Sequence record: PP180003
Origin: Escherichia phage mEp515
Length of the DNA stretch: 53,673 nucleotides
Reading direction: 5' to 3' (one strand)
The notes below the pieces were generated by a model that saw nothing but the letters and a program-made list of their open reading frames with translations, was not told where the DNA came from and made no database searches. Positions 3,792 to 44,053 of this stretch are shown here, piece by piece. Position 1 is the stretch's first letter. Each line of letters opens with the position of its first letter. The position numbers and the translations under genes are program-made.

Positions 3792-3998
3792 TTACACAAT
3801 CCGCATTGTGTTCCGTAATTCACCGCGCAACGCCTGCAAAGCGTAATGAATCGGCACAAAAGCCCGGTTAAATTTTACGTGCTTATACTTGCGCATTAGT
3901 GGCGGCGTATAAACCATCGTGCCGCAAGGATCGCATGTGAATTTAAAGTGAGATTCGTCAATAAACGTTTCTACTGAATAAAAAATTACCCGTCTCAT
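3792..3998 (-). CDS. Hypothetical protein (68 aa)
   Basis: ORF whose ATG overlaps upstream stop (ATGA). Confidence 0.4.
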   Translation of the reverse strand: MRRVIFYSVETFIDESHFKFTCDPCGTMVYTPPLMRKYKHVKFNRAFVPIHYALQALRGELRNTMRIV

Positions 3999-4552
3999 AA
4001 TTCCAACCCCGTTTCGCCGTTAAGTTTTTCAATCTCAAATATTGGTTTATCCGGTAGCAGGCCGTTATTTTTCCGGTATTCGTTCAGGAGGCTGTCAAAG
4101 TCAAACGCTAAATCATTAGCGTGACCGAATCGCCCTGGTTTAAACAGTGAGTAAAAATTAACCCCGTGCCTGTTTGGATCAACGCAAAGCGTTTCATCAA
4201 TCACCATTAAACGCAGAGTACGAGAAAGGTAATTCCACGGTATTCCCGTCTCAGCGCTAATGTCGCGCATACGCTTTTTAACGCTGTAGTCACTAAATAA
4301 CGACGCAACACGCTCACGACGTTCAGCATATAACTGTTTAATACGATAGCCCAGCAGACGGCGGCGGCGTCCAAAACATGTATATACGCGCTCGACGATA
4401 CCGTTTTTTATTAAGTGTTTAATTGTCTCAGGAAGTAACCCATCTTTATCATATCCAGCTAATAACCCCGTTTTATTGCGCAACTGGTGCATTGTTGCGA
4501 TGCCATCAAGTTCAAGGATATTGATAACTTTTGTTTCAAGTTCAGCGCTCAT
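3995..4552 (-). CDS. Hypothetical protein, possible winged-helix DNA-binding (185 aa)
   Basis: Start chosen at internal Met (MSAELETKV) preceded by GAGG SD; no catalytic motif. Confidence 0.45.
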   Translation of the reverse strand: MSAELETKVINILELDGIATMHQLRNKTGLLAGYDKDGLLPETIKHLIKNGIVERVYTCFGRRRRLLGYRIKQLYAERRERVASLFSDYSVKKRMRDISAETGIPWNYLSRTLRLMVIDETLCVDPNRHGVNFYSLFKPGRFGHANDLAFDFDSLLNEYRKNNGLLPDKPIFEIEKLNGETGLEL

Positions 4553-10467: not shown

Positions 10468-11115
10468 ATGAAAACAAAATGGTATGACTTAGCAAAGCAG
10501 CTCATGCGGGCGCAGGGCATGAGTCAGGATTCATTGGCTGATCTCATGGGGATAACCAAAGGTGGCCTTTCGCACTGGCTGAACGGTCGCCGTGAGCCAA
10601 ATCTTGAAGATATTGCGCGGATCATGCGGGCGCTTGGGCGTCGGCAGTTTACTGTCACACATGACGGGATGGTTATCGATGATTCTGTTTCTAACACGTT
10701 ACCGGGAGCGCCACCGCGTGATTTAGGCAGTTACCCGGTTGTTGACTGGAAGGATGTAGCAAACAATATGGAAGGCACATGCCGATCAACATTGCCACAC
10801 ATTACTACTAGCGTTATTTGTTCGGATGATAGTTATTGGCTGGTTGCTAAAGGTGAATCAATGAACGCACCGCAGGGGTTAAGCATCCCGGCGGGGACTA
10901 TGATACTCGTTGACCCGCACGCGCCAGCTATTGACGGAAAACTTGTTATAGCACAACTGGAGGAAGGGCAGATACCTACGTTTAAACAGTTGATTATTGA
11001 TGGAGGCCGAAAACTTTTGCGTTCACTGAATCCGTTGTATCCGCCGATCCCTATGAATCCAGAATCAAAAATCATAGGCGTGGTGGTTGATGCGAAGATC
11101 GTAAACCTGCCATAA
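10468..11115 (+). CDS. cI-like repressor (HTH_XRE N-terminus, S24 LexA-like autopeptidase C-terminus)
   Basis: 215 aa; HTH MSQDSLADLMGITKGGLSHWLNGRREP; C-terminal GESM serine motif and downstream Lys. Confidence 0.8.
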   Translation: MKTKWYDLAKQLMRAQGMSQDSLADLMGITKGGLSHWLNGRREPNLEDIARIMRALGRRQFTVTHDGMVIDDSVSNTLPGAPPRDLGSYPVVDWKDVANNMEGTCRSTLPHITTSVICSDDSYWLVAKGESMNAPQGLSIPAGTMILVDPHAPAIDGKLVIAQLEEGQIPTFKQLIIDGGRKLLRSLNPLYPPIPMNPESKIIGVVVDAKIVNLP

Positions 11116-11120
11116 ACACT

Positions 11121-11146
11121 AGCCGCCGGATGGCGGCTTTTCTTTG
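11121..11146 (+). terminator. Rho-independent terminator after repressor gene
   Basis: AGCCGCC-GGAT-GGCGGCT hairpin followed by TTTCTTTG. Confidence 0.7.
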
Positions 11147-11238: not shown

Positions 11239-11267
11239 ATTGACTCGGTGTTTTACGGGGCGTATAT
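11239..11267 (+). promoter_or_regulatory. Strong sigma70-type promoter (pL-like) for rightward early operon
   Basis: -35 TTGACT (11239-11244), 17-bp spacer, -10 TATATT (11262-11267); TACAAAATGG motif abuts the -35. Confidence 0.6.
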
Positions 11268-11522
11268 TGCGAATCAAAGGAAGGGCGTAGGTAACAAAAG
11301 CAGCTTCCTGGCACTTTAAAAATCAGGCTTAACACCTTGTCAACCGTGGAGTAACTCCCCGATGGGGGACCGAAAGCGGCACTGATAACAAGGCGCATGG
11401 GGTGTTTAAAGCGTTACATCCCCCACGAAACCGCACGCAGGGCGACGAGTCAGCTTGCTTGGAGTGAGCAAGGTCACGCCGGGAACGGCGATGATTGCGG
11501 GATTAGTTGAAAGATGTTAAGC

Positions 11523-11617: not shown

Positions 11618-11908
11618 ATGACAGTTACAATCATGTATGGCAAATGTGACAGTAAACTGAATGCCAGGGAACGCAGAAGAATAAAAAGAGAAAACGAAAG
11701 AAAATCATCACCTGCAATTAATAAAACGGACAATGTGGATAAAGCCATTCGCTTTGCAAACGAGGAAAGATGCAAACCCAATGGCATTAAAGAACGTCGC
11801 AAAGGAGCGGTAAAATGGTATACGGAAAATGAAAGCGGCAACTACTACCACGCAACGCAACCACGCCAGTTAGGGGAAAAACCCCTTGATAAAGTCCGCT
11901 ACCATTAA
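11618..11908 (+). CDS. N-like transcription antiterminator candidate (arginine-rich motif protein)
   Basis: 96 aa; N-terminal ARM NARERRRIKRENERK resembles lambda/P22 N RNA-binding motifs; first gene after pL-like promoter and nut-like site. Confidence 0.45.
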   Translation: MTVTIMYGKCDSKLNARERRRIKRENERKSSPAINKTDNVDKAIRFANEERCKPNGIKERRKGAVKWYTENESGNYYHATQPRQLGEKPLDKVRYH

Positions 11909-11938: not shown

Positions 11939-12061
11939 ATGGTTATCGAGGCGCTCAAATTCAAACTTGCGGTAGCGGAAATGCTTCATGATGCCGAAAT
12001 GTGGAGCGCCGCGAATAAAGCCTTATACGTAGTGTTAACAGCGAAGGAGATCAAAGAGTGA
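11939..12061 (+). CDS. Hypothetical small protein (40 aa)
   Basis: GGAGGTG SD; stop overlaps GTG start of erf. Confidence 0.3.
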   Translation: MVIEALKFKLAVAEMLHDAEMWSAANKALYVVLTAKEIKE

Positions 12062-12699
12062 AAACAGAGTTACACAAAAAGCTGTGGACGATTCAACAAA
12101 CGTTGAATGCGCCGAAAAATCAGCGTAATAATTTCGGTGGGTACAATTACAGGTCGGCGGAGGATATTTTAGAGGCGGTTAAGCCACTGCTTCAAAATAT
12201 CACGCTGACTGTTAGCGATGAAATCGTCCTGATCGGCAATCGCTATTATGTGAAGGCCACAGCTACGCTAAGCGACGGTGAAGATGAAATTGCGGTAACT
12301 GCTTACGCCAGGGAAGAAGAAAGCAAGAAGGGAATGGACGCAAGCCAGTTAACTGGCGCGACATCAAGTTATGCGCGGAAATACGCGTTGAACGGATTGT
12401 TCTGTATTGATGATGCGCGAGATCCTGATACTGACGCATACGCGAAGCAGACTGGCCAGCAGCCTCGCCAGCAGAAAAACACACCAAAACAACAACCACA
12501 GCAGCAGAAAGCGCCGCCAAATCCTGACGAGGTGTTAGCGCGTTTCTGTGATGCAGCAGCGAAAGCGCCTGACGCTAACAAGTTGCGCGAGATATTCGGG
12601 AAGTGCTGGAAGCTACTTCCTAAAGATTCAGAACAGCAACAGAAAGCTAAAGACGTTTATGATATTCGCTTAAAAGAGCTTAACGGGGAGATCGGTTAA
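12058..12699 (+). CDS. Erf-family single-strand annealing protein
   Basis: 213 aa; NFGGYNYRSAEDILEAVKPLLQNITL and low-complexity Q/P-rich linker typical of ERF; GTG start with AAGGAG SD. Confidence 0.7.
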   Translation: MKTELHKKLWTIQQTLNAPKNQRNNFGGYNYRSAEDILEAVKPLLQNITLTVSDEIVLIGNRYYVKATATLSDGEDEIAVTAYAREEESKKGMDASQLTGATSSYARKYALNGLFCIDDARDPDTDAYAKQTGQQPRQQKNTPKQQPQQQKAPPNPDEVLARFCDAAAKAPDANKLREIFGKCWKLLPKDSEQQQKAKDVYDIRLKELNGEIG

Positions 12700-13109
12700 T
12701 GAGCTTAAATTCAATTACGCTGGGCGGTAACGTTGGGAATGATTGCGAAACGAGATTTACATCAAACGGGAAAGCAATCGGTAGTTTCTCACTTGCTGTA
12801 CAACAAGGTTACGGTGATAACAAACGTGCAATGTGGGTAACGTGTTTAATATTAGGTGATAGAGCAACAAAATTAGCCGAACATATTAGGAAGGGGGATC
12901 ACCTGGTTGTAAGTGGTCGGTTGGATGTTAGGGATTGGGAAGGGCAGGACGGAAGAAAAAACAAATCAGTTGAGGTTATCGTGTCAGATATTGAATTTAT
13001 GAGCGGAAATAAACGCAGCGACCAAAACCAAAACAGACAACGCGAACAGCAACAACAATATAACCAGGATAACGGCGGGCAGGACTGCGACCAAGATATC
13101 CCATTTTAG
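12699..13109 (+). CDS. ssb: Single-stranded DNA-binding protein
   Basis: 136 aa; OB-fold N-terminus, Gln-rich tail ending in acidic DIPF motif. Confidence 0.85.
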   Translation: MSLNSITLGGNVGNDCETRFTSNGKAIGSFSLAVQQGYGDNKRAMWVTCLILGDRATKLAEHIRKGDHLVVSGRLDVRDWEGQDGRKNKSVEVIVSDIEFMSGNKRSDQNQNRQREQQQQYNQDNGGQDCDQDIPF

Positions 13110-13138: not shown

Positions 13139-13663
13139 ATGAGTAATGCCGAACCATTGAAAATATGTTGTACTTGCGGGGCACTATTGCCCCTTTCTTG
13201 TTTTCATAACGATAAGGGCAAGAAAGACGGCAAATCATGTAGATGTAAAGAGTGCGCCAAAAAAGCCACTAGAGAATGGAGTGAAGCGAATAAAGAAAGA
13301 AAAAAGAAAAATGATAGCGAATACGCAAAAACAGATAAAGCCAAAAAGAAAAGGGAAGAATACAGAAAATCGCAAAGAGGTAAAGAGATCGCGGCTGAAT
13401 CAAGAAAAAAATGGAATGAGAAAAACCCTAAAAAATACCACGCCCAAGTGATGGCACATAACGCTATCCGCGACGGCAAATTAATTAAACAACCTTGCGA
13501 AGTATGCGGCAGAGATGACCGCGTACACGCGCACCATTGCGATTATGATAAGCCGCTCGATGTTATGTGGCTTTGCCCGATATGCCATCGAGAGTGGCAC
13601 AACGAACACGGTGAAGGAGCTAATGCACACGACGAGGTATTAAGTGGTGAGCGAATATCTTAA
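13139..13663 (+). CDS. HNH endonuclease-like zinc-finger protein with lysine-rich region
   Basis: C-terminal CEVCGRDDRVHAHHCDYDKPLDVMWLCPICHREWH is an HNH signature; N-terminal CxxC pair. Confidence 0.5.
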   Translation: MSNAEPLKICCTCGALLPLSCFHNDKGKKDGKSCRCKECAKKATREWSEANKERKKKNDSEYAKTDKAKKKREEYRKSQRGKEIAAESRKKWNEKNPKKYHAQVMAHNAIRDGKLIKQPCEVCGRDDRVHAHHCDYDKPLDVMWLCPICHREWHNEHGEGANAHDEVLSGERIS

Positions 13664-13928
13664 AGCACCGCCACCGCCACCGCGAACAAAAGAACAAGTA
13701 TTAAAAGAAGCCCGTGATCATATCGATCATGGGCTTTTTTTATGCGGAACGGCGGCGGATCGAATGGCGAAAAGATTTAGTGACCTGTACGCAAAACAAA
13801 TATGGTTCGACAACTGGCAGGCAAGTTTTTACCCACTGCAAAGAAAACCGGATATGCATTGGCCTGAATATGTCGATCCACGTATGCGCAAATATCGCGG
13901 GCGTATGGGCCAGGTTATTAACGATTAA
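13644..13928 (+). CDS. Hypothetical protein (94 aa)
   Basis: GTG-start ORF overlapping upstream gene end. Confidence 0.4.
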   Translation: MVSEYLKAPPPPPRTKEQVLKEARDHIDHGLFLCGTAADRMAKRFSDLYAKQIWFDNWQASFYPLQRKPDMHWPEYVDPRMRKYRGRMGQVIND

Positions 13929-13942
13929 TGAGGTATTAAATC

Positions 13943-14167
13943 ATGATCGAAGATAAAGAAGTTGACGTAGAAATTCCTGACAGCGCTGATGAGCTTATCA
14001 CTTTCGGCGGCGGCCTGTATGAGTTCGATACATCGGCTGGGTGGGTTGATAAGTGGCCTCAGCCTACTCGCCAGGAATTAATTAACCGCAAATCATTCGG
14101 CGAAGATGCAGAACGCCTTGCTAATAACAAGTGGCTTAACAAGTTCATTGCGGAGGGTGATAAATGA
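13943..14167 (+). CDS. Hypothetical protein (74 aa)
   Basis: ORF in early operon. Confidence 0.45.
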   Translation: MIEDKEVDVEIPDSADELITFGGGLYEFDTSAGWVDKWPQPTRQELINRKSFGEDAERLANNKWLNKFIAEGDK

Positions 14168-14277
14168 ACCTTGCAAAAATTGCCGCATTGCTTGCGGCTT
14201 TGTCTATCGCTGTGCTGTATCTCAGCGTATCGCTTTATATAACGGTAGCGATCATTAAACTCATTGCTAACATGTGA
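14164..14277 (+). CDS. Small membrane peptide (37 aa, MNLAKIAALLAALSIAVLYLSVSLYITVAIIKLIANM)
   Basis: ATGA overlap with upstream stop; single TM helix. Confidence 0.3.
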   Translation: MNLAKIAALLAALSIAVLYLSVSLYITVAIIKLIANM

Positions 14278-14285
14278 GGTTAATC

Positions 14286-14405
14286 ATGAAAGTCGGTAAG
14301 GATATTGTGACGGTCGCGTTTTGCATTATTTGCTTCCTATTTGTGGTTGTGTTTTGTGGCGGATTTGCAGCGCTGGTTAGCTTTATTTTCAGGGGATTGT
14401 TGTGA
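14286..14405 (+). CDS. Small membrane peptide (39 aa, MKVGKDIVTVAFCIICFLFVVVFCGGFAALVSFIFRGLL)
   Basis: GAGG SD; hydrophobic; stop overlaps next start. Confidence 0.3.
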   Translation: MKVGKDIVTVAFCIICFLFVVVFCGGFAALVSFIFRGLL

Positions 14406-14677
14406 TGAAAACATGGGATGCAAAGACTGGTGATCTTGTTGTATTGCCTGAATATCGTGATGACCCTGGCCTGGTTGTACTGAATAAGATGTATAACGAT
14501 CTAGATCGCCCGCTAGTGGTTAAATACCTGGACGGAACAATCATAGAACCGCGCTACTTTGATGATATTGAACTGAAGGCCCGCAACGTTCGCGTTAAGC
14601 CGTTCCGGGCTTATGTTGAGGACCACTGGCGGAAATTGTTCGCCGGACTGAATGGGATGTACGGCGTATGGCTATAA
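14405..14677 (+). CDS. Hypothetical protein (90 aa)
   Basis: ORF, translationally coupled. Confidence 0.45.
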   Translation: MKTWDAKTGDLVVLPEYRDDPGLVVLNKMYNDLDRPLVVKYLDGTIIEPRYFDDIELKARNVRVKPFRAYVEDHWRKLFAGLNGMYGVWL

Positions 14678-14859
14678 AGGAAGTAAAGGTCAAAGACCTG
14701 AAAGGCGGTGAGCGATTAAAGGCGTGGTGGGGTCGCGAGTTTACAGCCGCTGCCTTCATGATCATGCAGGGCGGGGAGGTCGTTATATACGATGAAGACC
14801 TGAAGGAAGTCGGCAGGTGGCATCTTGAGCAATATATCGAGGTGTTAGATGAAAATTAA
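14668..14859 (+). CDS. Hypothetical protein (63 aa)
   Basis: ORF. Confidence 0.4.
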   Translation: MAIKEVKVKDLKGGERLKAWWGREFTAAAFMIMQGGEVVIYDEDLKEVGRWHLEQYIEVLDEN

Positions 14860-15181
14860 ATTCCATAAAGGTTATGATTCGGTCACTAACAAGTTATCGC
14901 TATTTATTGAGTTCGAGCGCCGGATCGTGGTTGTTCCTTATTCTCGGCGCTTTAATGATGCGGCAGGGCGGCGGCAATTCGCGTTAGACATGTTGTTACG
15001 TGGCTGCGGCCTTATGCGCCCGCTATCTGATTTGAAACGGATGATGCCGGGATCGTTCGGTCAGGTTGATGAAATAGAAATAAGCCCGGAAGAACTGAAG
15101 CGGGAGCGTGATTTATTCCTTTCAAGCGAAGGAAACCCGTTTAATTCAGAAACAGAAATGAAATGGCATCACCCACTATAA
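14849..15181 (+). CDS. Hypothetical protein (110 aa)
   Basis: ORF. Confidence 0.45.
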   Translation: MKIKFHKGYDSVTNKLSLFIEFERRIVVVPYSRRFNDAAGRRQFALDMLLRGCGLMRPLSDLKRMMPGSFGQVDEIEISPEELKRERDLFLSSEGNPFNSETEMKWHHPL

Positions 15182-15194
15182 AAGGATAAATATC

Positions 15195-15815
15195 ATGAAC
15201 GACATTAAAACAGCTTATTCACTAGGCAGCGATGGCATGTTAATCACTCGCTACACTGAAGACGCAAGTTTTCATGAAGTGGAAACGAAGGATTATCACG
15301 AAGTATTAAAAGATATGGAAGCTGGCGCGTATGACGCAGATTTGAATCTGGCTTTACAGATTGTTGATATTATGATGGACGCGTCGATCCGCGATTATGT
15401 GTCTTTAAACGCTGAAGAAAAAACGGCTGTGGCTCGTTATGTCTTCTGCCTAACTTTCGTGAAACGAATGGAAGAGGAATATGGGCGCGTGCCAGTGCCG
15501 GAAGAAATTGACCCGCTGGCGTTCGGAAGCGCTGTTATTTTCCCGTTAGATGAAAATCATACTGGTAGCGTTGCGCTGCATTCTATGCGCGGCGTAATGA
15601 AATGCATCTTTGAGGCTAAAGCGCTACAGAAGTGCATTGATGAAGGGCATGACGAAGAAGACGTAAAAGCGATCATGCCGTTGTTTTATGGCGAAATGGT
15701 TGGGAACAACATGCGCGCAAATGATTTAGGTGTGCAGGCTGCCATAACTGTACTTAACGAAGCGCGGAAAATGTCGCAGCCAATGCCGGAACCTGAAAAA
15801 CGTGTACTGCATTAA
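15195..15815 (+). CDS. Hypothetical acidic protein (206 aa)
   Basis: ORF; acidic composition; no motif recognised. Confidence 0.5.
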   Translation: MNDIKTAYSLGSDGMLITRYTEDASFHEVETKDYHEVLKDMEAGAYDADLNLALQIVDIMMDASIRDYVSLNAEEKTAVARYVFCLTFVKRMEEEYGRVPVPEEIDPLAFGSAVIFPLDENHTGSVALHSMRGVMKCIFEAKALQKCIDEGHDEEDVKAIMPLFYGEMVGNNMRANDLGVQAAITVLNEARKMSQPMPEPEKRVLH

Positions 15816-15820
15816 CATCG

Positions 15821-15880
15821 TGATTGCGATCACATAAATATACATTTTGTGTTGTGATCGCATATCCGTTTTGTAAACTG
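15821..15880. promoter_or_regulatory. Intergenic inverted repeat TGCGATCACA / TGTGATCGCA flanking a TACATTTTGT motif (candidate operator or internal promoter)
   Basis: 10-bp arms separated by about 18 bp containing TATACATTTTGT; lies upstream of ORF 15915. Confidence 0.35.
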
Positions 15881-15914
15881 AAATCAAAAGGTTTACGGCA
15901 CGGAGGAAAACAAG

Positions 15915-16133
15915 ATGGCAAGCGAATTAATGCTTTATTGTGTTGAAGGTGGCGTGGGACATGATGCCTACGTCGCCGGGAAAAGCTATCCAGCAGATGA
16001 AGTGCTTTCTAATATGCACTTCCGGGAAAATGAAAACCAGGTGTCTGTGTGGAAGCGATGCGTTGATGGCATTGAGGTAGTTAGCCTCGAAAGATATTTG
16101 GGTAAATTTGACTACGCATTGATCGAGGCTTAA
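15915..16133 (+). CDS. Hypothetical protein (72 aa)
   Basis: ORF with GGAGG SD. Confidence 0.45.
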   Translation: MASELMLYCVEGGVGHDAYVAGKSYPADEVLSNMHFRENENQVSVWKRCVDGIEVVSLERYLGKFDYALIEA

Positions 16134-16231
16134 CTATGGACGAAACATTGCTATTCATGTGCATTTGCTGGGGTTTTATTGCCTTATGCCTGTTTATCAG
16201 GTGGTTTATTGAATACCATATGAGGTGATAT

Positions 16232-16426
16232 ATGGAACAGAAAACTGATTATAGAATACCTGACAACCTGAAGTTAGTTGGCATTGGTTTTGGTTGTCGT
16301 TTTGTATCTGACGCAAACGGGGCGATTTATTTAGTGCGCATCATTGATGGCGTTCAACATATAAGAAGGCTAGGACTTTACATCAAAGCATTTAGAAGAG
16401 GTTATTTGAAAACTCATGAAATTTAA
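16232..16426 (+). CDS. Hypothetical protein (64 aa)
   Basis: ORF. Confidence 0.4.
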   Translation: MEQKTDYRIPDNLKLVGIGFGCRFVSDANGAIYLVRIIDGVQHIRRLGLYIKAFRRGYLKTHEI

Positions 16427-16619
16427 ACAGTATAAAGAATGGAAGATTCCAGAAGAAGCGACAAAGGCAGCGCCCGGAATTTTTTCGGGCGTTTATTTTT
16501 ATATGGGCGGTAAATGGTATTTCGGCAGCAGGCCGGATCACTATTATCAAGAATTATGCAAATCTCACACATGGGACATTAATGAACGCGTGCAAGGCGG
16601 TGTAATAGACGAGGTTTAA
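16416..16619 (+). CDS. Hypothetical protein (67 aa)
   Basis: ORF. Confidence 0.4.
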   Translation: MKFKQYKEWKIPEEATKAAPGIFSGVYFYMGGKWYFGSRPDHYYQELCKSHTWDINERVQGGVIDEV

Positions 16620-16620
16620 A

Positions 16621-16857
16621 ATGATTAATGGTTTTTTAAGCTGGTTAAGAGTGTGGTTTTTTGCCACGCTTTTCGTTTTTTTGGCGTTCAGCGGTGTCAT
16701 TGTCATATTTACGCTGGCGATGATGTTCATTACATGGTCAGTACCTGAATTTAACAATCTTGGAAGTATTTTTGCTGTCGCCCGCGCCATGTTTGCTTGT
16801 AGCGCATTTGTTGGTTTTTGTTGGAGTGTTTCGCCTGATTGGGATGATGAATGGTGA
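16621..16857 (+). CDS. Small membrane protein (two predicted TM helices)
   Basis: 78 aa; hydrophobic segments WFFATLFVFLAFSGVIVIFTLAMMFI and AMFACSAFVGFCW. Confidence 0.45.
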   Translation: MINGFLSWLRVWFFATLFVFLAFSGVIVIFTLAMMFITWSVPEFNNLGSIFAVARAMFACSAFVGFCWSVSPDWDDEW

Positions 16858-16861
16858 TCCT

Positions 16862-17095
16862 ATGGCCTTGTTCAATATGTCAGAACTGCAATTCAACGCC
16901 GTAAAAGCTGCCGCCCGCGCTGCACTTTCTGCTTGCAAAGCGGAGGTAGAGAAAAACGGCTACAGCGATAAAGCCACGCGGCTGATATTAGAAAAGCATT
17001 ATCGCAAGGTCGCCCCACTAATCAGCATTGAGCGCTTTGTGTGGTTGGTGGGGTATTTAAACAACCGTTGGGGGACGGAACAAGATTATTTCTAA
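16862..17095 (+). CDS. Hypothetical protein
   Basis: Start set at internal Met (MALFNMSELQ) to avoid overlap with preceding gene. Confidence 0.4.
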   Translation: MALFNMSELQFNAVKAAARAALSACKAEVEKNGYSDKATRLILEKHYRKVAPLISIERFVWLVGYLNNRWGTEQDYF

Positions 17096-17104
17096 GGGGG
17101 CGTA

Positions 17105-17644
17105 ATGAAAAATGATTTTGGAGGCAGCCACACTCCTAAGGAAATTAAAGATCTATGGCAGACGCCTAAACCAGTTTTCAGAGGAATGGACCGCGAATTT
17201 GAATTTGTCGCTGACGTGGCGGCAAACAAGGAAAATGCGCTAGTTCCTCGGTATATAACCGAAGAAATGGACACGTTGCATTATCCGTGGGGAGCTGTGG
17301 CAATGCCTGGTGAGTATGTCTGGCTTAATCCGCCATATTCTAAACCGGGGCCATTCGTTGAGAAGGCGGCATTAGAACATCAACGAAATCACATTGGCTG
17401 TGTAATGCTGTTGCCCGCTGACATTTCTGTTAGCTGGTTTATGAACGGCGTGGATACGGCAAACGAATGCCGATTAATCACGCGCGGGCGGCTGGCGTTT
17501 ATCAATGCTGCGACTGGTAAGCCAGTAAGCGGAAACAATAAAGGGAGCTTGTTTTTGATCTGGCATCCACGGTGCAGACATGAATGTATTTTTACACACA
17601 TAACACGTAAAGAGCTATACGCAAGAGGTGCAGATAATGACTAG
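17105..17644 (+). CDS. Phage N6-adenine DNA methyltransferase (Dam-like)
   Basis: 179 aa; catalytic NPPY motif (VWLNPPYSKPG); size and layout typical of phage orphan Dam methylases. Confidence 0.8.
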   Translation: MKNDFGGSHTPKEIKDLWQTPKPVFRGMDREFEFVADVAANKENALVPRYITEEMDTLHYPWGAVAMPGEYVWLNPPYSKPGPFVEKAALEHQRNHIGCVMLLPADISVSWFMNGVDTANECRLITRGRLAFINAATGKPVSGNNKGSLFLIWHPRCRHECIFTHITRKELYARGADND

Positions 17645-18134
17645 TGCAGCAGATTTACTACGAATCGCAGCGGAAACAATTGAGCAAAGAGGTAAACAAA
17701 ACGGCTACGACAGAAAAGAGGAAAAATCAGCGCCAAAAATAGCCACTATATACAACGCTAAGAAGGGCGCAAATTTAACCCCACTTGATGTATGGGATCT
17801 GATGATTTGTCTTAAGGAGGCGCGTTTAGAGGCTATTTTGGTTAATGGCAGCGATCCCACTGACACTTTGGTTGACCTAATCAGCTACAGCGCACTAAAA
17901 GCTGAGCAAATATTGAATGATCTGGATGAAGAGTTAAAGAAAAATCAGTTCACTGCCGCCAATATTAATGATGGAATAATAAATGACGCAGCAATAACAA
18001 GCTGTAAGGGATTGCCGCCTTCAATGCTTAAACCTCAGTGTGGCTGTATTTCAAATCGGCTTGATTTGAGTTTTGACAGATCTGAAGCTATTCGCGACAA
18101 GAGGTATGACCCAAATGAAAAAGGTGACAATTGA
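17637..18134 (+). CDS. Hypothetical protein (possible nucleotide pyrophosphohydrolase-like domain)
   Basis: ORF with AGAGGTG SD; functional guess is weak. Confidence 0.4.
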   Translation: MTSAADLLRIAAETIEQRGKQNGYDRKEEKSAPKIATIYNAKKGANLTPLDVWDLMICLKEARLEAILVNGSDPTDTLVDLISYSALKAEQILNDLDEELKKNQFTAANINDGIINDAAITSCKGLPPSMLKPQCGCISNRLDLSFDRSEAIRDKRYDPNEKGDN

Positions 18135-18618
18135 CAGGTTATTGGCCTGCGTTTATGTCGCCGTTTTCGTGATCATCAACCTAATTGTTAACCATTGCGG
18201 CCCGTGGGTGATTCCTATCACTACGGTAGCCGCTGTGTGTGTCAATATGATGATCCGCGACTTCCTGTTATATGACGGCGGTATCAAGTGGTCGGCGACA
18301 ACATGCGCCGCCGCTGGCGCAATCACTGTGCTGATAAATTACGACGCCGGAATGGTAGCGATCGCGTCATTTGTTGCGGTTGTTTCCGGTGCACTTATTT
18401 CTGGCGGCGTTTACCGGGTTTTACCTGGTGACTTTGATTCAAAACGATGGCCTGCAAATATAGCGTCAGCAATAGGCGATGCGTTGATTTTCCCTACGCT
18501 ATCGTTTATGGCATTCATGCCGGAAATATCAGCAATGCAATTCATATCCAAAATGGCGGCGGTAACGGTGATCACTATCATCATGCGCCGCTATTTTACG
18601 TTTGAGGGTAGAAAATGA
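18115..18618 (+). CDS. Integral membrane protein (4-5 predicted TM helices)
   Basis: Strongly hydrophobic segments throughout; start uncertain (18106 or 18115). Confidence 0.5.
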   Translation: MKKVTIDRLLACVYVAVFVIINLIVNHCGPWVIPITTVAAVCVNMMIRDFLLYDGGIKWSATTCAAAGAITVLINYDAGMVAIASFVAVVSGALISGGVYRVLPGDFDSKRWPANIASAIGDALIFPTLSFMAFMPEISAMQFISKMAAVTVITIIMRRYFTFEGRK

Positions 18619-19373
18619 GCAGGGGTAAACATTGGTTTAATAATTGGCTTAGAAATTGGGTCGTTTGGTCGTTGTACGACGGCAGCGGGTACGCCGTCAA
18701 AGATTGGGCGGAAGCAGGATATAAGTGCTATTGCTTCAACTATGACGGCGCAAATCACGGCGATTATGAAGGCGTTAAAATCATTCATCCAAATATTGAA
18801 TACGTTAACGTATGGATTGACAGTCACTTCCTGGTGATGTTCTCGCCTGAACTGTCAGTTTACCCAGATCCTGATATTATCCTGGGCTTCCCGCCGTGCG
18901 ACGATCTCGCCGTGTCTGGCGCTCGCTGGTTCGCTGATAAACGGAAAAAAGATCCTGACTTCCAGGTGAAGGCGGCGAATAGCGCAAAACTGGTAGAAAA
19001 ACTGGCGGATATGCACAACGTGCCGTGGATGGTGGAAAATCCGGTGGGAGCACTGTCAACGCTATGGCGCAAACCTGATTTTATTTTCAACCCTTGCGCT
19101 TACGGTGGCTACCTGCCGGAAGACGACAAACATCCTGCTTTCCCTGATGTTTACCCTGCGCGCGACGCGTATACAAAGAAAACTTGCATATGGTGCGGCA
19201 ACGGATTCAAACAGCCGCTTTTTAGACCTGTAGATCTTAACTCTGGCGATAACCCTGGGTGGGCGAAAACCGGAGGCAGGACGAAACGAACAAAGATGAT
19301 CCGCTCACTAACTCCGCGTGGCTTTGCCCGTGCTGTATTCCTGGCTAACCATAACAGCGCTTTACCGGACTGA
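18615..19373 (+). CDS. DNA (cytosine-5) methyltransferase-like protein, short and atypical
   Basis: 252 aa; motif-IV-like GFPPCDD (Pro-Cys) and motif-VI-like WMVENPVG (ENV); no target-recognition domain at this length. Confidence 0.4.
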   Translation: MSRGKHWFNNWLRNWVVWSLYDGSGYAVKDWAEAGYKCYCFNYDGANHGDYEGVKIIHPNIEYVNVWIDSHFLVMFSPELSVYPDPDIILGFPPCDDLAVSGARWFADKRKKDPDFQVKAANSAKLVEKLADMHNVPWMVENPVGALSTLWRKPDFIFNPCAYGGYLPEDDKHPAFPDVYPARDAYTKKTCIWCGNGFKQPLFRPVDLNSGDNPGWAKTGGRTKRTKMIRSLTPRGFARAVFLANHNSALPD

Positions 19374-19470
19374 AATTTACAAAATGGCGTCATTGCGTGA
19401 TATGGATCACATAATGGCGCTTTTCACCTTGTTATGACGTATCCATTTTGTATACTTCAAACAAGCAAAA

Positions 19471-43926: not shown

Positions 43927-44053
43927 CGCACACCTCCGCGCCATTTTGTTAACCCTGCTTCCTTTTGAGTACAATATACATATTGTAAAAAGCGCTATCA
44001 ACCGTTTTGGTATGATTTAGCGTGACGTAGATCACAAATTGCAAGGTGATAAA

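Follow-up and report, generated by a model that had tools for sequence, protein, structure and literature searches.

What do the small genes of a phage early operon do once those for recombination have been accounted for? The question is raised by positions 13,139 to 17,095 of the Escherichia phage mEp515 genome (record PP180003; the window, i.e. the whole stretch of DNA analysed, comprises 53,673 nucleotides), where an array of 15 mostly small genes directly follows the recombination genes erf and ssb. A first reading made from the letters alone, called the sequence-only reading below, had placed this array where lambdoid phages keep genes for host takeover and anti-defence. Our analysis suggests that the stretch is probably the middle, accessory portion of an early operon under antitermination by Gp17, and that it forms a mosaic of a selfish nuclease, the tail of a recombination module and small proteins that would act on the host. 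The array is an ordinary, poorly understood phage gene cluster, two genes of which, the gp21-type Abc2 homologue and ipe, are already understood.

The 3957 bases of the stretch match Enterobacteria phage mEp021 at 100% identity (MH706966.1; the record coordinate equals the window coordinate plus 700) and, for the open reading frames (ORFs) that we checked, the mEp515 proteins are identical to the encoded products. The phages mEp554, mEp010, mEp044, mEp013 and MagusPhagus match the stretch at 83–92% identity, and so do prophages carried by 35 of the 5426 complete genomes of E. coli. The locus is present in GenBank and in two papers and is hence already known. In the literature, mEp021 and mEp515 belong to a group named mEpimmI, and Gp17 is an antiterminator of the N type whose sites are nutL, nutR1 and nutR2; nutR1 precedes gp17, and nutR2 follows the gene of the cytosine methyltransferase (PMC11893012). 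We located gp17 at 11618–11908, and the stretch falls between nutR1 and nutR2. The assignment of the array to an early, N-antiterminated operon is therefore correct, and erf (12058–12699) and ssb (12699–13109) directly adjoin it upstream as had been claimed. The lambdoid setting has to be given up, as the authors describe the group as Nus-dependent yet non-lambdoid (PMC11893012).

The expectation of some 15 mostly small genes was accurate. We found 15 plus-strand ORFs covering 96.4% of the bases, and the coordinates that had been given for the HNH-like gene (13139–13663), two mini-ORFs (14164–14277 and 14286–14405) and a 206-amino-acid (aa) ORF (15195–15815) were exact. For the comparison we used 14 annotated relatives and a larger set of 61 related phages and prophages, which consists of those 14 and 47 IMG/VR contigs. 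The frame and length of every ORF are kept in the orthologues of the 14 annotated relatives. The pooled ratio of nonsynonymous to synonymous substitution rates in this set (dN/dS, Nei-Gojobori) ranges from 0.05 for ipe to 0.49 for gp28; the values are phylogenetically non-independent and the mini-ORFs offer few sites. All ORFs except the HNH gene were detected in 59–61 of the 61 relatives, with the gene order conserved. Most ORFs are preceded by a GAGG-type Shine-Dalgarno sequence at a distance of 7–9 nucleotides (nt), and start and stop codons overlap at the junctions gp22/mini1 (ATGA) and mini2/gp23 (TGATG). The mEp021 record MH706966 annotates nine of the 15 ORFs and omits mini1, mini2, orf30, the HNH gene, orf63 and orf67.

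In the mechanism that we propose, this translationally coupled array of 15 genes would be expressed soon after infection or induction, and RNA polymerase modified by Gp17 would read through two internal hairpins. The first of these is a terminator-like hairpin on the plus strand at 14182–14198 (GCCGCA-TTGCT-TGCGGC followed by TTTGT), which lies inside the mini1 coding sequence and corresponds to TERM_2 of the GenBank record. Terminators t1, t2 and t5 have been demonstrated experimentally and t3 and t4 predicted (PMC11893012); the hairpin at 14182–14198 is possibly t2. The second, at 16469–16493 on the plus strand inside orf67 (TERM_3), has an 11-bp stem and a T-run and exceeds all other terminator-like hairpins of the region in strength; a hairpin of this type is predicted at the equivalent place in mEp554, mEp010 and mEp013. 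Terminators inside coding sequences are normal for such operons: tL3 of HK620 sits within the DUF2737 gene of that phage.

The first of the two understood genes is gp21 (plus strand, 13644–13928, with a GTG start at 13644 or 13647 and a product of 93–94 aa), which encodes a divergent member of the Abc2 family of anti-RecBCD proteins. Sequence comparison places it in this family: residues 4–94 align to positions 9–98 of the 98 positions of the profile phrog_656 'abc2 anti-RecBCD' with an E-value of 1.8e-30. Furthermore, the product is 43% identical to HK620 hkaJ, and a tblastn search with gp21 recovers the annotated abc2 genes of HK620, Sf101, mEpX2 and HK629. The similarity to P22 Abc2 amounts to 32% identity across the C-terminal 37 residues and places Pro63 of gp21, which is invariant in 14 sequences, on Pro68 of the P22 protein; a phmmer search with gp21 did not recover the P22 Abc2 PDB chains (8B1T/8B1U) even at E ≤ 10. 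The gene is under constraint, with a dN/dS of 0.18. In the cryo-electron microscopy structure of RecBCD with P22 Abc2, Pro68 engages the host protein PpiB and the N-terminal helices (residues 3–52) contact RecC (PMC9836394). By analogy, gp21 would bind RecC and re-programme RecBCD, and the host isomerase PpiB possibly acts on the conserved proline of gp21.

Directly after abc2 follows gp22 (plus strand, 13943–14167), an acidic protein of 74 aa. Its match to the Pfam family DUF2737 (E 0.006, 16.9 bits) is below the cut-off of 25, and it shares 45% identity with P22 orf56 across 31 aa. The place directly after abc2 is also that of P22 orf56 and HK620 hkaI, and the Prokaryotic Genome Annotation Pipeline (PGAP) of NCBI names one prophage orthologue (L007) 'DUF2737 family'. 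The order of a Kil-like gene (gp18), erf, ssb, the HNH gene where present, abc2 and the DUF2737-like gene is that of P22 and HK620. Both gp21 and gp22 belong with the Erf/SSB module and extend the recombination module as in P22, which they would thereby complete.

The second understood gene is ipe ('inducer of pleiotropic effects'; plus strand, 16862–17095), the last gene of the array. It is annotated under this name in MH706966, and its product of 77 aa is 100% identical to the ipe product of that record and to JQ072023. The complete frame of 111 aa contains in-frame starts giving products of 83, 82, 77 and 72 aa, as described for ORF-4, where the 77-aa product is ORF-4.3 (PMC6379469). Ipe was published by Martinez-Penafiel et al. 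(2012, Biochimie), as cited in PMC6379469 and PMC11893012. Its overexpression leads to vesicles containing HlyE, haemolysis, altered morphology and death (PMC6379469, PMC11893012), and Ipe accounts for the haemolytic phenotype of mEp021 lysogens (PMC11893012). We found ipe to be the most constrained gene, with the lowest dN/dS of the region (0.048). Full-length homologues with 31–49% identity occur in 204 phage genomes, mostly of the Drexlerviridae (T1-like virulent phages). A word-index search that was started from a T1-like homologue returned three proteins, and a profile search recovered the family, which matches phrog_303 and has an invariant core F..N..K...F.W. AlphaFold2 (AF2) predicts a soluble three-helix bundle (predicted local distance difference test score 86.4), and the model had no informative structural neighbour. 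Ipe may represent a family of small three-helix proteins, common to the temperate mEpimmI phages and ~200 virulent T1-like phages, that causes envelope stress and vesiculation of the outer membrane, perhaps together with the adjacent membrane mini-proteins. As side observations, the homologues in the phages herni, Motto, PHB07, KLB26 and 2019SD1 are 75–77 aa long and belong to a set of small early genes that precede the small terminase gene, and neither these five nor any other of the 204 phage records carries a function annotation for the homologue.

The HNH gene (plus strand, 13139–13663; 174 aa) is located between ssb and abc2. Its product matches phrog_2340 'endonuclease' over its full length (E 3.4e-41), phrog_1035 'endonuclease VII' (E 1.6e-10) and an 'HNH endonuclease' family, and there was no match among the Pfam models at E ≤ 1, including HNH and Endonuclease_7, or in NCBIfam. 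By eye, the translation contains C120-x2-C123, H130, H132-H133, C146-x2-C149-H150 and H154, with D141 standing where an Asn is usual. The gene is present in three of the 14 annotated relatives and in 9 of all 61, and the similarity to relatives lacking it restarts at ~13648, at the start of gp21. This sporadic presence/absence pattern with a junction at the gp21 start is that of a free-standing selfish nuclease and not that of a host-takeover gene; in the mosaic it would be a nuclease of HNH/endonuclease-VII type inserted between ssb and abc2. Among the four carriers the gp21 start codon could be read in all but L008 and is GTG in these three; in nine of ten relatives without the gene it is ATG. 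The insertion apparently remodelled the translation start of abc2. We also observed that the same three carriers have an overlap between the 3' end of the HNH gene and the abc2 start (13644–13663 in the window), and that in nine of the ten other relatives the abc2 ATG follows ~15 nt after ssb.

The third part of the mosaic would be twelve small, group-specific, non-structural proteins, most likely acting on the host rather than in phage replication or assembly. This group would include four membrane proteins (37, 39, 30 and 78 aa), gp24-gp25-gp26, the DUF7274 protein and Ipe. The only demonstrated phenotype in the array is the envelope effect of Ipe, and the four membrane proteins are encoded nearby; the mini-proteins could target the envelope. 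The statement that no fold is recognisable apart from the HNH zinc finger was wrong, as profiles recognise Abc2 (phrog_656), DUF7274, a protein like DUF2737 and P22 orf56, and the Ipe family (phrog_303). When the 15 products were scanned against Pfam, NCBIfam and PADLOC, only DUF7274 and the sub-threshold DUF2737 came up, with no PADLOC or NCBIfam model matching any product. For gp25, Ipe, gp23, gp24, gp21 and the HNH protein, single-sequence and profile searches gave no significant PDB match, and Rfam showed nothing above noise within 10–20 kb.

Several points weigh against our interpretation. Since no homologue or structural neighbour with a function came to light for 11 of the 15 products, action on the host is inferred from where the genes lie, how small they are and the example of the two known members. 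The region belongs to the core of the phage group, with 14 of 15 ORFs in nearly all relatives. Regions of the classical host-takeover or moron type usually vary. Termination in vivo by the hairpins at 14182 and 16469 is a prediction from the sequence. Finally, gp21 aligns pairwise with P22 Abc2 in the C-terminal third only, and the helices that contact RecC (3–52) are unaligned. The sequence-only reading of the array as host-takeover and anti-defence genes thus stands in part: at least two products act on the host (the Abc2-family gp21 and Ipe), whereas the array is core and shows no other link to defence. Neither homology nor structure gives any of the genes a housekeeping function.

An alternative explanation is that the cluster serves mainly as an anti-defence island, in which gp25 acts as a DNA mimic against restriction or RecBCD-like enzymes and its neighbours inhibit other immune systems. 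The genes lie early in the operon with the anti-RecBCD homologue as a neighbour, and Dam and cytosine methyltransferase genes follow shortly after; gp25 and its partners lack housekeeping homology. With an isoelectric point (pI) of 4.66 and a net charge of −17, gp25 (plus strand, 15195–15815; 206 aa, a near-orphan) is indeed as acidic as had been noted. However, its 37 Asp and Glu residues amount to 18% of the protein and its net charge to about −0.08 per residue, well below that of mimics of the Ocr or gp5.9 type. Classical DNA mimics such as Ocr and those of the T7 gp5.9 type are far more charged than gp25. T7 gp5.9 has a pI of ~4.0 (PMC9836394). A structure prediction had been suggested for the acidic protein; the AF2 model shows a beta-sheet with helices that matches no solved mimic, nor any other fold among solved or viral structures, and brings no gain for DNA mimicry. 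The acidity of gp25 was thus noted correctly, and the modest charge and lack of a mimic fold lend mimicry no support. Anti-defence islands also typically turn over fast, whereas 14 of the 15 genes are kept in order in 59–61 of the 61 relatives, and we found no experimental or homology tie to defence systems, Abc2 being the sole known anti-defence family. We regard this explanation as unlikely.

The partners of gp25 are gp24 (plus strand, 14849–15181; 110 aa, dN/dS 0.11), which is intact in all 61 relatives and had no PDB or profile match, and gp26 (plus strand, 15915–16133; 72 aa, acidic, dN/dS 0.17). An exhaustive representative search yielded one true distant homologue of gp25, on a divergent metagenome contig (L024; ENA ERZ27253218 k141_50865, 282–1581). 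This contig encodes homologues of gp24, gp25 and gp26 with 52%, 28% and 32% identity, the gp24 homologue being immediately upstream of that of gp25. Because the order is kept although the flanking genes differ from those of mEp021, the three genes behave as a cassette, and the sequence comparison suggests a mobile one. Scans with a gp24 profile gave in-group loci only in IMG/VR and metagenomes and none in GTDB genomes, and since there is just the one distant homologue besides, the cassette is essentially limited to the mEp021-type group. That the conserved, group-specific genes include host-takeover effectors not recognised so far is conceivable at rather long odds; the two main candidates are the Ipe family, with the envelope role suggested above, and these three proteins, with a new anti-host or anti-defence activity.

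Another explanation concerns the sole sizeable non-coding gap, 99 nt between gp25 and gp26 at 15816–15914. The gap is conserved: among 38 unique relatives its mean nucleotide diversity is 0.137 compared to 0.25 at the third codon positions of gp25. It contains a perfect 10-bp inverted repeat (TGCGATCACA at 15825–15834 and TGTGATCGCA at 15853–15862), a second hairpin just ahead of the gp26 Shine-Dalgarno sequence, the invariant TCCGTTTTGT and a CRP-like palindrome CGTGA-N6-TCACA at 15819–15834. A scan with the consensus revealed no sigma-70 promoter in the gap. The gap might serve for attenuation or termination, or else as an internal promoter or operator for gp26 to ipe. In the latter case the membrane mini-proteins, gp23 and the block from gp26 to ipe might be morons expressed in the prophage from this internal promoter, rather than lytic early genes, with roles in superinfection exclusion, in stabilisation of the toxin-antitoxin kind or, by way of haemolysis, in lysogenic conversion. 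The palindromes of the gap would fit, and as mEp021 lysogens are haemolytic through Ipe (PMC11893012) there would be some prophage expression of ipe, though spontaneously induced cells could explain this too. Databases call gp23 a toxin of a toxin-antitoxin system, a label that has no hidden Markov model support. Apart from the lack of a sigma-70 consensus match, the strong hairpin at 16469 stands between the gap and ipe, and the exclusion function of the group has been assigned to Lpp lipoproteins encoded elsewhere in the genome (PMC11893012). We consider prophage-expressed morons improbable and retain the early operon mosaic. As a side observation, the palindrome in the form CGTGA(T/C)-N4-GATCACA occurs in three copies (15819–15834, 19396–19411 and 44021–44036), and a relaxed pattern has six matches in the window compared to 1.6 expected by chance. 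The copy at 19396 lies within the long hairpin TERM_4, just past the end of the cytosine methyltransferase gene, which is the reported location of nutR2.

The two adjacent membrane peptides singled out by the sequence-only reading are real conserved proteins with a single hydrophobic helix each. Mini1 (plus strand, 14164–14277; 37 aa) has a grand average of hydropathy (GRAVY) of 1.83, was detected in 60 of 61 relatives with 37–39 aa and shows a dN/dS of 0.16; its Shine-Dalgarno sequence is GGAGGG. Mini2 (plus strand, 14286–14405; 39 aa) is Cys-rich, with a GRAVY of 2.0 and a maximum KD19 of 3.04. It was detected in 59 of 61 relatives with 38–40 aa, has a dN/dS of 0.33 and three conserved Cys, and is preceded by GAGG. 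Further membrane proteins are orf30 (plus strand, 16136–16228; 30 aa, Cys-rich, GAGG Shine-Dalgarno sequence, dN/dS 0.16), which was detected in 60 of 61 relatives with 29–30 aa, and gp28 (plus strand, 16621–16857; 78 aa, GRAVY 1.12) with two hydrophobic stretches. The latter is the least constrained gene (dN/dS 0.49) and is shortened to 42 aa in two relatives (L003 and L012). None of the four matched a family in PHROG, NCBIfam or Pfam.

For mini1, mini2 and orf30 a coding function is the much better interpretation, since the conserved frames, the bias among codon positions and the ribosome-binding sites together point to it. The variable sites at the first, second and third codon positions number 9/5/21 for mini1, 14/8/19 for mini2 and 5/3/13 for orf30. 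The three ORFs are left unannotated in MH706966 and by PGAP in RefSeq prophages; the records of mEp554, mEp010, mEp044, mEp013 and MagusPhagus, which are based on PHANOTATE, include the mini-ORFs, as does mEp515 for the ORFs checked. That the three are merely a non-coding spacer that holds a terminator and has open frames by chance, as the hairpin within mini1, the two missing annotations and the absence of a family match might suggest, we reject as very improbable given frames of constant length in 59–60 of 61 relatives (mean amino-acid identity 74–84%), dN/dS values of 0.16–0.33 with substitutions clustering at third codon positions, two alternative forward frames closed in every relative, a GAGG Shine-Dalgarno sequence for each and the overlaps of mini1 and mini2 with a neighbouring gene. 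In one prophage (strain STEC308; L011, 2127–2840) a KilA-N gene lies between mini1 and mini2, which are therefore separable. We also noticed that the array takes insertions at fixed points, i.e. this KilA-N gene and an extra hydrophobic ORF of ~60 aa after the gp25–gp26 spacer in RM9245 and E21845/O/A (L010 and L012, ~3995–4180).

The remaining ORFs are small. The product of gp23 (plus strand, 14405–14677; 90 aa, dN/dS 0.19) matches phrog_28396, a family of unknown function, with E 3e-60. We rejected the propagated label 'toxin-antitoxin system toxin subunit' for gp23, and likewise 'cell division protein FtsK', which PGAP gives to gp28, as neither protein has a match in NCBIfam, Pfam, PADLOC or PDB. 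The acidic orf63 (plus strand, 14668–14859; 63 aa, dN/dS 0.16) is present in all 61 relatives and matches phrog_34199 (E 5e-28). The basic gp27 (plus strand, 16232–16426; 64 aa, phrog_37004) no longer matches most relatives at the nucleotide level; it is the most allele-variable position of the array, with an ORF of 63–64 aa in 60 of 61 relatives at 38–100% amino-acid identity. Finally, orf67 (plus strand, 16416–16619; 67 aa, dN/dS 0.14) is a DUF7274 protein (Pfam E 3.9e-8, 33.5 bits compared to a cut-off of 24.5). Neither orf63 nor orf67 is annotated in MH706966.

Outside the array we made the following observations. Upstream, gp18 (11939–12061; 40 aa) directly precedes erf and has a weak Lambda_Kil Pfam match (E 0.008, below the cut-off); it takes the kil/arf position of P22 and shows no similarity to P22 Arf. 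A CI-like repressor with a helix-turn-helix domain and an S24 peptidase is encoded at 10468–11115, in the same orientation as the early operon under its control, and a strong bidirectional terminator-like hairpin (11121–11138) comes next. This layout differs from that of lambda. The best sigma-70-like promoter of this area is at 11240–11268 (10 of 12 matches). Downstream of ipe follow a Dam-type N6-adenine methyltransferase (17105–17644), a DUF6378 protein (17628–18134) for which some PHROG labels read 'phosphofructokinase', apparently spuriously, a multi-pass membrane protein (18073–18618) and a cytosine methyltransferase (18615–19373). There are therefore two self-methylation genes in one early operon.

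The analysis adds three conserved membrane mini-proteins and three more ORFs missing from the mEp021 reference record, and it finds the propagated names of gp23 and gp28 unsupported. Three leads stand out as the most useful, namely the Ipe family of T1-like phages, the gp24–gp26 cassette and the unannotated mini-proteins. Phages of the mEpimmI group have been reported in human stool samples at a frequency equal to that of lambdoid phages, which makes their conserved early genes without assigned roles reasonable targets.

We conclude by comparing the array with known systems. The order from a Kil-like gene through a single-strand annealing protein, SSB, Abc2 and a DUF2737/orf56-like protein to small genes of the 'ea' type is shared with the PL operons of P22 (kil-arf-erf-abc1-abc2-orf56-ea genes) and HK620 (kil-hkaM-sak4-ssb-abc2-hkaI-hkaH), as are the N-type antitermination and the terminators within coding sequences. 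In contrast, the mEp021 backbone represents a separate, non-lambdoid group (PMC11893012), the similarity of Abc2 and orf56 to P22 is merely 32–45% over 31–37 residues, Abc1 is missing, some members carry the HNH insertion, and the twelve genes downstream of the gp22-type gene have no counterpart in P22 or HK620. At the protein level, gp21 resembles P22 Abc2 (8B1T/8B1U) in size (93 compared to 97 aa), genomic position, the match to phrog_656 and the C-terminal motif including the proline equivalent to Pro68, whereas its N-terminal two-thirds, where the RecC-binding helices of the P22 protein lie, fail to align. The HNH protein shares with phage homing nucleases of the HNH/endonuclease-VII type the two CxxC pairs seen by eye around HH, the matching PHROG endonuclease families and the intergenic presence/absence polymorphism between conserved genes; it differs in the lack of a Pfam HNH or Endonuclease_7 match and in an Asn position that is seemingly Asp. 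Like Ocr, ArdA, gp5.9 and lambda Gam, gp25 is acidic, phage-early and encoded near anti-RecBCD and methyltransferase genes. Unlike them it has a much lower charge density, is larger, has a predicted mixed beta/alpha fold and travels with two partner genes, and there is no structural or sequence similarity. The published mEp021 Ipe is the same gene as ipe of the array, with an identical sequence, 77 aa and alternative in-frame starts giving 83, 82 and 72 aa. New in our analysis are the reach of the family to ~200 Drexlerviridae and the predicted three-helix bundle. Ipe has so far been a curiosity of one phage, and the spread of its family makes the phenotype of vesicles, HlyE and death a candidate for a general phage function.

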